From assembly GCA_964590905.1 (NCBI GenBank), contig CAZPYU010000040.1:1-48569 (forward strand): a stretch of 48,569 bases of DNA. Direction: 5' to 3'. The notes under the pieces were generated by a model. It saw nothing but the letters and a program-made list of their open reading frames with translations, ran no database searches and was not told the DNA's origin. This stretch comes from an uncultured Thermoanaerobaculia bacterium. Lineage in GTDB: Bacteria; Acidobacteriota; Thermoanaerobaculia; Multivoradales; JAGPDF01. The translations under genes and the position numbers were made by a program. Positions 10,152 through 12,064 of this stretch are shown here, piece by piece (the first letter of the stretch is position 1; every line of letters starts with the position of its first letter).

Positions 10152-10184
10152 GCTCCTCGGGATCCTGTTTCGATCCTCGATGTT

Positions 10185-10212
10185 ACGTCCGATAAGATAT
10201 ATTATGTTGCAT
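10185..10212 (+). other. dif: dif-like XerC/XerD recombination site
   Basis: ACGTCCGATAA-GATATA-TTATGTTGCAT has the 11-6-11 layout of dif (E. coli GGTGCGCATAA-TGTATA-TTATGTTAAAT): inner ATAA/TTAT dyad, 9/11 identity in the XerD arm. It is an AT-rich, non-coding spot between convergent genes. Confidence 0.85.
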
Positions 10213-10289
10213 TTGAGGCATCGAACCCCAAGTTCCCGCTTCCAGAGCGGACTACCTCTCCCTACCGCCTTTCCGGTGGATCGGCCTCT

Positions 10290-11183
10290 CTACTCGGGCG
10301 ACTCGCGGATCTCGCGCAGGATCTGCTCCAGCGCTCGCACAAGATCCGCTCTTTCGACCACACTCTGACGGAAACTGAGGTCGAGCGTAAACGTTCGATC
10401 GGGTGACCGAAACTTGAAACGGTACGGCTGCCGTCGCCCTCGCGAGACGCCCCGAGAGTCCGCCTTCTTCGCCGTTGCGCGCTTCCTCGACCGCAGGCCG
10501 TCTCGCGTCAGCCCTAGCCTGGACGCAGCCTCCAAGAGCTCGCGCATCCGCTCCGGGTTGCCAGCTCGCGCGATCTCCAATAGGCCCGATCGACTCTGAA
10601 CTCCGGCGCTCTCGGCCACTTGTCGGAGCTCCTCGGGGATTTCGAGTAGCGTCAGCGTCTCGGTGATCGTGGTGCGCGCCTTCCCGACGACCTTGCCGAT
10701 CTGCTCGTGGCTGTACCGATAAAGTGTCGCCAGCGACCGATAGCCTTCGGCCTCCTCGAACGGGCTGAGATTCTTGCGCTGGAGGTTCTCGATGAGCGCG
10801 ATCTCCAGGGCCTCCTGTTCGCTCACCTCGAGCTCGATCACGGGAACCTCGAAGAGCCCCGCCTCGAGCGCCGCGCGGTATCGCCGCTCGCCGGCCACGA
10901 TCGTGAAGTGGGCGGCGCTTTCGCCCTCGTCGAGGAGCACCGACGCCAACCTGCGCACCAGGATCGGCTCCAAGATTCCCTTCTCGCGAATCGAATCGAC
11001 GAGATCGGTCAGGTCGCCGACGTCGTGCCGGGGCTGATTCTCGTTCGGTCGCAGCGCCGAGAGCGGCAGCAGCCTGCCAATCGACGACTCGTGGCGATGC
11101 GCCAGCTCGTCAACGAAGTGCGCTGTATGCCGCATTTTGATTCGCAACGGAAGGCCGCGCTTTTCCGGCATCGGCTCAGACAC
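10290..11183 (-). CDS. parB: ParB/RepB/Spo0J family CTPase DNA-binding protein (non-canonical)
   Basis: [24 protein letters not shown], CTPase patch [55 protein letters not shown]; start overlaps parA stop. Confidence 0.92.
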
Positions 11184-11934
11184 GGCTCAAGATCTCCTCC
11201 GAGAGCTTGTAATACTCGTAGGCACCGCTCGAACGGGGTGCGAACGAGAAGATCGACTCCCGGTAGGCCGGACTCTCCTCGAGACGAACGCTCTTGGTAA
11301 TCACAGTCTCGAACAGCCGATCGCCGAACACTCGCCGAATCTGCTCGACGATGTCTCGCGCGAGCACCGTGCGGCGGTCGTAGAGGGTGATGACGGCTCC
11401 TAAGATCTGCAGGGCCGGGTTCGAGCGCGCTTTGACCTTATCGATCGTTTCGAGCAGATCGTCGGTCCCTTCGAGCGCGAAGTAGCTCGACTGAATCGGA
11501 ATGAGTACGTGGCTCGCGGCGACGAGGGCATTCACAGTGATGATACCGAGCGTCGGCGGGGTGTCGAAGATGACGAAATCGAACTCGGACCGAAGCGGCT
11601 CCAGCCGATCCTTCAAGCGAAACTGACTGTCGATCTCGCCGATCAGCTTGGCCTCGAGCTTGGCCAGGGCGATCGACGCGGGGGCAATCGTCAAGGCCGG
11701 GAGCTTGTCCGCCGGCCGGAGCACCTCGCGAAGCGGCGTCTGACCGTCGGCTAGAGCATCGTAGACCGATTTTTCGAGCGAGTGGACGTCTAGGAACGAC
11801 ATCGAGGCGTTGGCCTGCGGATCGAGGTCGACCAGAAGCGTCTTCAAGCCCTTCGTGGCCAGGGCAGCGGCCAAGTTAATGGCCGTCGTCGTCTTGCCGA
11901 CGCCGCCCTTCTGGTTAGTTATCGCAAGAAGCAT
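11176..11934 (-). CDS. parA: ParA/Soj family ATPase
   Basis: Deviant Walker A NQKGGVGKTTT, LLVDLDPQANAS, FDTPPTLG, VLIPIQSSYFALEG, SVRLEESPA; no N-terminal HTH (Soj-like). Confidence 0.95.
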   Translation of the reverse strand: MLLAITNQKGGVGKTTTAINLAAALATKGLKTLLVDLDPQANASMSFLDVHSLEKSVYDALADGQTPLREVLRPADKLPALTIAPASIALAKLEAKLIGEIDSQFRLKDRLEPLRSEFDFVIFDTPPTLGIITVNALVAASHVLIPIQSSYFALEGTDDLLETIDKVKARSNPALQILGAVITLYDRRTVLARDIVEQIRRVFGDRLFETVITKSVRLEESPAYRESIFSFAPRSSGAYEYYKLSEEILSRV

Positions 11935-11949
11935 GGAGCTCGCCGGCAG

Positions 11950-11978
11950 ACTCTAGAGCAGGCGGGAGCGCCGGTCAA
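11950..11978 (-). promoter_or_regulatory. Sigma70-type promoter for parA-parB
   Basis: Minus strand TTGACC - 17 bp - TAGAGT, 15 nt upstream of the parA ATG. Confidence 0.7.
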
Positions 11979-12003
11979 GGAGCTCGGTTCTCGATCAGGG
12001 CCA

Positions 12004-12019
12004 TGTCGGCGCGCCGACA
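12004..12019. repeat. Perfect 16-bp palindrome TGTCGGCGCGCCGACA
   Basis: Reads identically on both strands; intergenic, upstream of the parA promoter; no adjacent U-tract. Function unknown. Confidence 0.6.
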
Positions 12020-12064
12020 AGCTCTGTAATCGTTGAGTCTAAATAGGTTATTTCCATATTAGCG

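Follow-up and report, generated by a model that had tools for sequence, protein, structure and literature searches.

The ParABS system is the textbook machine for segregation of the origin region of bacterial chromosomes, and its centromere, parS, is regarded as almost unchanged throughout bacteria. The present analysis concerns a parA-parB operon situated directly beside a dif site in a stretch of DNA of 48,569 nucleotides (hereafter the window) from an uncultured Thermoanaerobaculia bacterium of the Acidobacteriota (assembly GCA_964590905.1, contig CAZPYU010000040.1). According to the best reading of the data, the conserved unit has four parts, in the order parS*-parA-parB-dif, in which parS* is a candidate variant centromere, spans about 1.9 kb and lies on the main chromosome at converging replication forks. 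Reviews place parS in an origin-proximal position (PMC7333895), and the literature searched contained no description of a dif-parB linkage in Acidobacteria, of a terminus-proximal parS or of the palindrome proposed here (including its 14-mers), in agreement with the original prediction, made from the letters of the window, which knew of no described ParAB system tied to dif. What is new here is a ParABS with an apparently re-programmed specificity together with a conserved, terminus-type, dif-linked position.

The closest described relatives are the chromosomal ParABS systems of Bacillus, Thermus and Caulobacter (Soj/Spo0J-parS), with which the locus shares a ParA of Soj size with a deviant Walker A motif, an overlapping parA-parB operon, a ParB containing the GERRxRA and ENLQR boxes for cytidine triphosphate (CTP) and a helix-turn-helix (HTH), and a 16-bp TGT...ACA palindrome located either ahead of the operon or, like the parS of spo0J, within parB. 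Unlike them, the clade to which this ParB belongs has no canonical parS, carries E at the position of N178, lacks GHAR and possesses an N-terminal peptide and a C-terminal domain of its own; moreover, the module is not beside dnaA, rsmG or mnmG but in a terminus-like locus directly at dif. A further likeness is found in Noc, the ParB paralogue of Firmicutes which recognizes the Noc-binding sites (NBS). Both are ParB-family CTPases with a specificity shifted, presumably so in the clade ParB, from parS at the same interface; at position 201 Noc has R, and the clade has K or R in its aligned S-[KR]-S stretch. However, Noc works without a partner ParA, has an N-terminal helix for membrane targeting, binds many NBS but avoids the terminus and is encoded by an origin-located gene, whereas the clade ParB has a co-conserved cognate ParA and a candidate non-NBS site at the terminus.

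At the terminus itself, the MatP-matS/FtsK/dif system of Escherichia coli offers an analogy by inference only, that of a sequence-specific system dedicated to the dif region and removable by FtsK; MatP differs in being unrelated to ParB, in having no ATPase partner, in acting through 23 matS sites over 800 kb and in the position of its gene, which is unlinked to dif. A protein gene locked within tens of base pairs of a chromosomal dif is known from the xerS-difSL modules of streptococci and the xerH-difH modules of Helicobacter/Campylobacter, but in those cases it is the recombinase itself that is linked, and here it is a partition operon. Lastly, partition genes adjoin the dimer-resolution site in the stability regions of plasmids and islands such as the gonococcal genetic island (difA/difB with parA/parB); these regions are mobile and patchy, and have two sites or carry rep/tra genes, while the present module has a single site, lies amid core genes and is conserved across classes.

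The dif site of the window (Table 1) shares 18 of its 28 positions with E. coli dif, and the consensus built from 29 distinct related sites shares 21; the XerD arm of the window site, which is near that of E. coli (TTATGTTAAAT), is directed toward parB, and its inner ATAA/TTAT are intact. The 29 related sites show 90-100% conservation of GTC, ATAA, TTATGT and AACT and a variable centre of 6 bp. A single copy of the core ATAA-N6-TTATGTTNNAT is present in the window (0.00 expected, 100 shuffles), and a dif-like site is unique both there and in each of the loci of 10-20 kb with which the window was compared. For Solibacter, Kono et al. (2011, supplement) predicted a dif of the same type, situated at 48% of the chromosome and at a distance of 0.47% of its length from the shift point of the skew. 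The coordinates of the site and its distance of 77 bp from the parB stop had been given in the original prediction, and both were borne out.

The pairing of dif with parAB is conserved in about 30 relatives belonging to at least three classes. When the window ParB was scanned against one genome per species of the GTDB, seven full-length relatives with 37-45% identity were found, in one Vicinamibacterales chromosome (7.39 Mb), four metagenome-assembled genomes (MAGs) of Aminicenantes and two unclassified MAGs, and all seven have a dif-like 28-mer just past parB. The same holds for closer relatives on long contigs (CP064972.1, of 5.22 Mb, and contigs of 7.66 Mb and 2.2 Mb). Overall, dif follows parB in 32 of 35 evaluable loci, that is, in 11/11 genome-derived loci and in 21/24 metagenome loci, so that the presence of dif within about 1 kb of orthologous parAB, a check proposed together with the original prediction, was obtained in the large majority of cases. 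The distance between dif and the parB stop is 43-350 bp in 19 metagenome loci (about 0.9 kb in one, with a frameshifted parB), 728 bp in another, and another has a truncated parB; in most loci of Aminicenantes type it is only 18-19 bp. Over the linked loci as a whole it is mostly 19-350 bp, with 0.7-1 kb in two. The linked loci are labelled Thermoanaerobaculia, 'Holophagales', Vicinamibacterales and Aminicenantes, and the module is found in chromosomes of 5-7 Mb of different classes. A control set consisting of about 59 more distant canonical ParBs, which match only the N-terminal and HTH core, gave no dif-like site beside parB (0/59). A cultured carrier with a finished genome was sought by protein searches, and the matches were all from uncultured organisms. 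The miaB-dif-parB junction recurs in an independent Logan assembly (L001) and in the 2.2-Mb contig of another organism (L073); therefore it is not an assembly artefact, and a chimeric contig, which had been named as a possible undoing of the idea, is excluded as its cause. The genes leuS, der, metK and nuo are also present as claimed, and the linkage is both real and chromosomal.

The adjacency has been kept through rearrangements of its surroundings (the blocks compared are in Table 1). In the window and in L073 the order is miaB>, dif, <parB, <parA, <BFN, followed by lptFG; in L069 and L003 the whole block from BFN to dif, still between miaB and lptFG, has the opposite orientation; L072 and L156 share the gene arrangement of L069, with dif alone flipped. 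The XerD arm faces parB in 25/30 loci, and dif is flipped in the other 5 (L072, L096, L103, L156 and L168). The loci of Aminicenantes type contain no BFN, miaB or lptFG, and their flanks, mutually different, include peptidases, toxin-antitoxin pairs and a two-component system. An adjacency that is retained while orientation varies argues for selection on proximity and against frozen synteny. Small dif-centred inversions appear to recur among lineages, and in L072 a long, near-perfect hairpin (L072:10883-10995; stem CACGGACTGGCAGGGAC...GTCCCTGCCAGTCCGTG) occupies the interval from the parB stop to the inverted dif.

ParA, and ParB in its N-terminal and HTH core, are close to chromosomal Soj and Spo0J. 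ParA, which is Soj-sized and has no N-terminal HTH domain, finds its closest solved structures in 8ray (1.2e-61) and in Thermus thermophilus Soj (1wcv/2bej, 1.3e-56), and ParB in T. thermophilus Spo0J (1vz0, E = 2.6e-34); the two genes overlap by 8 nt. ParB retains the CTP-binding boxes GERRYRA (residues 98-104) and ENLQR (132-136). Alignment with canonical ParBs reveals a signature of the dif-linked proteins, namely K[RS]GLPxxxxMRHxxHFV at the N-terminus where canonical ParBs have LG[KR]GLxALI, GK[AS]R[ST][ST][IV]TE in the recognition helix where these have GKxRSxVAN, and a shorter S-[KR]-S stretch in place of the GHARAL motif, missing from all clade members, in addition to the C-terminal domain that they share. 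In Caulobacter ParB, N178 and R204 contact parS, and G201 is invariant among the orthologs of ParB (Jalal et al., 2020; PMC7383237). Among the parS-contact positions (Caulobacter numbering), R173 is kept in the clade, N178 is changed to E and the segment G201-H-A-R204 is replaced; therefore a changed DNA specificity would be expected. With the Noc profile (TIGR04285) the window ParB scores 126 bits, below the cutoff of 315. The dif-linked ParBs are thus regarded, with very high confidence, as a separate divergent clade, and the module as real. An acidobacterial MAG (L063:8908-10786) encodes, next to NiFe hydrogenase genes, a ParB and a ParA of plasmid type (353 aa, with an HTH at its N-terminus); this pair was considered and set aside as unrelated to the clade.

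An unbiased search for 16-bp palindromes common to the loci led to parS* (Table 1), which shares with parS both the length of 16 bp and the TGT....ACA frame. A copy with zero mismatches is present upstream of parA in 11/11 genome-derived clade loci containing the region, including those in AT-rich Aminicenantes DNA, while none was found in 961 kb of control loci (0/59). In the window it occurs once, 1.8 kb from dif; the original prediction had not noticed this candidate site, which strengthens the idea of a ParB acting at the terminus. The canonical parS (TGTTNCACGTGAAACA), sought with no more than one mismatch, is in 0/11 clade loci and 0/30 metagenome clade loci versus 11/59 controls, and the window has only one match to it, with three mismatches and within miaB. 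An exact-match scan of metagenome contigs for parS* returned at least 120 loci; among the 120 matches listed, 28 have the motif next to clade parA or parB, and 3 more carry other module genes. Two or three copies are at the operon in L168, L169 and L004, and in L100, a Thermoanaerobaculia-like contig, an intergenic copy is found on the far side of lptFG, at a distance of about 5 kb. Many Vicinamibacteria-like loci have the palindrome within parB, where it corresponds to C-R-L-A-D-I just past the HTH. For the copies of the module, a role as plain terminator of the BFN gene was rejected in the absence of a consistent T-run, and also because the exact sequence, beyond what pairing would need, is kept across classes and there are copies inside the parB frame. 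The palindrome is probably the binding site of the clade ParB, and on sequence grounds it is a candidate both for the centromere of the clade and for the operator of the operon.

The same 16-mer flanked by A/T runs (AAATGTCGGCGCGCCGACATTTT) was also met with no parAB near it, at L079:12302-12502 and L173:5908-6284 and in L124, L125, L134, L142, L171, L182, L191 and L193. The copy of L173 lies in a duplicated block of about 360 bp, and in L079 two copies bracket the glyQ-glyS junction. Another contig with a scattered parS*-like site, L090, carries the small RNA Acido-Lenti-1 (Rfam RF01687, 47.9 bits, at 6987-7032) and is therefore acidobacterial or from Lentisphaerae.

As for the position on the chromosome, the plus-strand genes on the left of dif and the minus-strand genes on its right converge on the site. 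Raw GC skew is weak in these GC-rich genomes and, in 10-kb segments, proved too noisy in loci of high GC; genes of the same coding strand were therefore compared on either side of dif. The plus-strand genes of the window have a mean skew of +0.024 to the left of dif and of -0.046 to its right (Mann-Whitney p = 0.002), and the coding-strand GC skew at third codon positions is about -0.05 to -0.07 for the genes that would be leading if forks converge at dif and -0.13 for the lagging ones. The strand-controlled skew has the same direction in L006, L007 and L069 and, weakly, in L073. No cluster of DnaA boxes was found in the window, where a single box with one mismatch is 30 kb off, at chance level, and dnaA is in none of the clade loci, while it is within 10 kb in 9/59 canonical-ParB loci. 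The fractional position of parB is 0.68 and 0.71 in the complete chromosomes CP064972.1 and OZ220736.1, respectively, and 0.24 in the 7.66-Mb contig, along coordinates that have no origin reference. Taken together, the strand-controlled skew, the lack of dnaA within 10 kb and the lack of a DnaA-box cluster uphold the assignment to a terminus rather than to an origin, on which the original prediction depended, and the locus is very likely the replication terminus. In six loci of Aminicenantes type (L004-L009) two DnaA-box-like 9-mers, TGTGGATAT and TGTGGAAAA, are at +85 and +119, counted from where dif begins (e.g., L007:10947-10990), with a fixed spacing and 57 bp beyond the XerC arm; they are conserved in front of differing downstream genes and followed by AT-rich DNA, and it is possible that they serve for DnaA binding at the terminus or are Xer accessory sequences. 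Despite them, the strand-controlled skew in loci of this type is of the terminus type.

Considering these elements, a mechanism may be proposed in which the variant ParB, which retains the CTP box, would load as a clamp at parS* and spread across about 2 kb including dif, the sliding of the clamp over dif being expected because it is established ParB behaviour. A partition complex would in this way be built on the terminus rather than on the origin and, with the Soj-type ParA, could hold the sister termini with their dif sites, or position them, and would then separate them in step with XerCD/FtsK dimer resolution at division; by analogy with the removal of MatP in E. coli, FtsK moving toward dif could strip ParB from the DNA. 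The full model, i.e., a terminus partition complex coupled to dimer resolution, has about even chances of being correct. The original prediction spoke of a second ParAB, dedicated to the terminus, which might position or segregate ter, deliver dif to FtsK/XerCD or act in the manner of Noc or MatP; that the chromosome has one system only, relocated, is no less likely, and the altered specificity of ParB would allow coexistence with a canonical one. A bolder and rather unlikely extension is that in a large part of Acidobacteriota the sole chromosomal ParABS uses an undescribed centromere, TGTCGGCNNGCCGACA, at the terminus beside dif, segregating or anchoring the chromosome from the terminus in a manner coupled to XerCD/FtsK. 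Such a mode of segregation, if true, would turn upside down the rule that bacteria segregate the origin first. A sole system would be a more surprising outcome than a second one. If the module holds as described, it would provide a further natural case, after Noc, of a ParB whose specificity was re-programmed, a new and orthogonal ParB/parS pair usable in tools for DNA labelling and a testable tie between partition complexes, terminus organisation and Xer/FtsK, with a bearing on the timing of segregation in an abundant, slow-growing soil phylum; terminus organisation in bacteria devoid of MatP is poorly understood.

Several observations weigh against a ParB acting on parS* at the terminus. The assignment to the terminus rests on the identity of dif, on a weak skew over 10-40 kb and on one analogy from the literature; the skew of L072 is ambiguous, L003 has no switch in raw skew (the only skew available for it), and the KOPS-like motif (FtsK-orienting polar sequence) GGGNAGGG, whose 29 occurrences toward dif and 11 away in the pooled flanks agree weakly with a terminus, gives a small count confounded by gene orientation. 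The pairing of ParB with parS* is deduced from co-occurrence and from the changed contact residues. Three metagenome loci with clade parAB (L084, L098 and L143) have no dif in the available flank, and in L151 (5097-5738) miaB-BFN-parS* is followed by 640 bp devoid of parA, owing either to displacement of the operon or to an assembly break. Moreover, among the matches listed, about 17 acidobacterial-looking contigs with 54-60% GC carry the 16-mer flanked by A/T runs in intergenic positions by unrelated housekeeping genes, e.g., glyQS, nrdR and fumarase, the remaining matches looking like chance matches inside genes. Therefore, ParB sites may lie elsewhere on the chromosome, or these copies may act as terminator-like hairpins, a role that is possible for them. 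The claim that this ParAB acts at the terminus thus stands only in part: the chromosomal linkage to dif and the candidate site 1.8 kb away speak for it, and the scattered palindromes suggest that in some lineages binding may extend beyond the terminus.

The same scattered palindromes, far from any parAB, and the three loci with no dif in the available flank favour the most serious alternative, namely that this is the ordinary and sole partition system of the chromosome, whose genes merely happen to be at the terminus. In that case ParB would act mainly on parS* sites elsewhere (e.g., near oriC), the copy by parA would be an autoregulatory operator and the adjacency to dif would be inherited synteny with no functional coupling. 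Most bacteria have one chromosomal ParAB only, the present ParA and the N-terminal and HTH core of its ParB resemble chromosomal Soj/Spo0J closely, and the palindrome is just upstream of a promoter-like site, all of which agree with such an explanation. On the other hand, the adjacency outlasts class-level divergence (37-45% ParB identity), unrelated flanks in the Aminicenantes-type loci and at least three rearranged layouts, through which neutral synteny is not expected to survive, and the gap to dif is only 18-19 bp in most of those Aminicenantes-type loci; the extra parS* copies for which the context is available cluster at the module (L004, L168 and L169) or about 5 kb from it (L100), and even one loading site would put ParB clamps over dif. 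An ordinary sole system is considered a possible but less probable explanation than a terminus-acting one.

The stability regions of plasmids typically combine partition genes with a multimer-resolution site, and the module could in principle be the remnant of a mobile element (an integrative mobile element exploiting Xer, or IMEX, a plasmid or a phage-plasmid) which, like the gonococcal genetic island, was integrated at dif by Xer recombination and brought the partition genes along. Two viral contigs of IMG/VR (L253 and L271) indeed have dif-like sites at 0.5-1.2 kb from a generic ParB-like gene. However, the 48.5 kb of the window contain one dif-like site only, genes for an integrase, for replication or of phage type are missing from the vicinity, the surrounding core genes keep a conserved order, the module belongs to large chromosomes of different classes, and IMG/VR holds no full-length member of the clade, its best matches covering only residues ~39-207 with E no better than 1e-29, so that a mobile origin is very unlikely. 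The dif-like sites of the two viral contigs (L253:4451-4478 and L271:249-276) have arms of Aminicenantes type (e.g., GTGTCGCATAAGGACTATTATGTCAACT) and lie upstream of the ParB-like gene; these contigs may be mobile elements exploiting the host Xer system. Finally, the locus could be a replication origin region in which the dif-like site serves another role, as the origin linkage of canonical parAB and, in the Aminicenantes-type loci, the two conserved 9-mers and the AT-rich stretch just past dif might suggest. Against this are the solitary, distant DnaA box of the window, the lack of dnaA in clade loci compared with canonical ones, a miaB-dif interval of just 33 bp in the window, the convergence of the genes on the site and the change of the strand-controlled skew from plus to minus, the reverse of that of an origin; an origin is accordingly regarded as exceedingly improbable, and a terminus remains the preferred assignment.

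Table 1. Features of the dif-parAB locus. Positions are those of the window unless another locus is named.
Feature	Position	Strand	Description
miaB	8736..10151	+	NCBIfam TIGR01574, 424 bits (cutoff 355); Pfam UPF0004, Radical_SAM, TRAM
dif site	10185..10212	+	ACGTCCGATAA-GATATA-TTATGTTGCAT; 28 bp, 11-6-11 layout
dif, XerC-type arm	10185-10195		ACGTCCGATAA
dif, centre	10196-10201		GATATA
dif, XerD-type arm	10202-10212		TTATGTTGCAT
parB	10290..11183	-	297 aa; Pfam ParB_N 2.4e-24, HTH_ParB 9.7e-14; NCBIfam TIGR00180, 132.9 bits, above cutoff
parA	11176..11934	-	252 aa; Pfam AAA_31 6e-57, CbiA; Soj-type deviant Walker A NQKGGVGKTTT
Promoter-like site for parAB	11950..11978	-	TTGACC-17 nt-TAGAGT, 26 bp downstream of the palindrome; from a consensus scan only
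parS* candidate	12004..12019		Perfect 16-bp palindrome TGTCGGCNNGCCGACA (TGTCGGCGCGCCGACA), 70 bp upstream of the parA ATG
BFN-domain gene (PF02577, TM0160-like)	12065..12574	-	Pfam 1.2e-40; PDB 1vjl 1.1e-25; synteny
lptF/lptG fused permease gene	13181..15571	+	Pfam LptF_LptG 1.6e-151; conserved module flank by synteny
Block compared for rearrangements	10185-12574; L069:8643-11029; L072:8614-11023; L073:8623-11002		

With regard to the surroundings of the module, the likely genes from position 1 to 10151 are all on the plus strand and comprise lptB, rpoN, hpf, hprK, rapZ, phosphotransferase system genes, ptsI, a cupin gene, an unknown open reading frame and miaB, the final gene of the run. On the other side of dif, parB, parA and, next to them, the BFN-domain gene are all on the minus strand, and these gene calls confirm the plus-strand run of 10 kb which, in the original prediction, meets a minus-strand run at dif. 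The rest of the window consists of core chromosomal genes (lptFG, metK, tolQRA-tolB-pal-ybgF, lptE, leuS, nusB, der and nuo), and no xer recombinase gene is found in its 48.5 kb. The BFN gene is directly upstream of parS*-parA in all loci of Thermoanaerobaculia and Vicinamibacteria type and is not in those of Aminicenantes type, for which reason it is placed outside the minimal module; the persistence of this gene, which encodes a nuclease fold, beside a partition operon and dif may reflect a functional link. A complete tolQ-tolR-tolA-tolB-pal-ybgF cluster, related to cell division and the envelope, is at 21604-26425, 11-16 kb from dif, and the same neighbourhood is present in L069.

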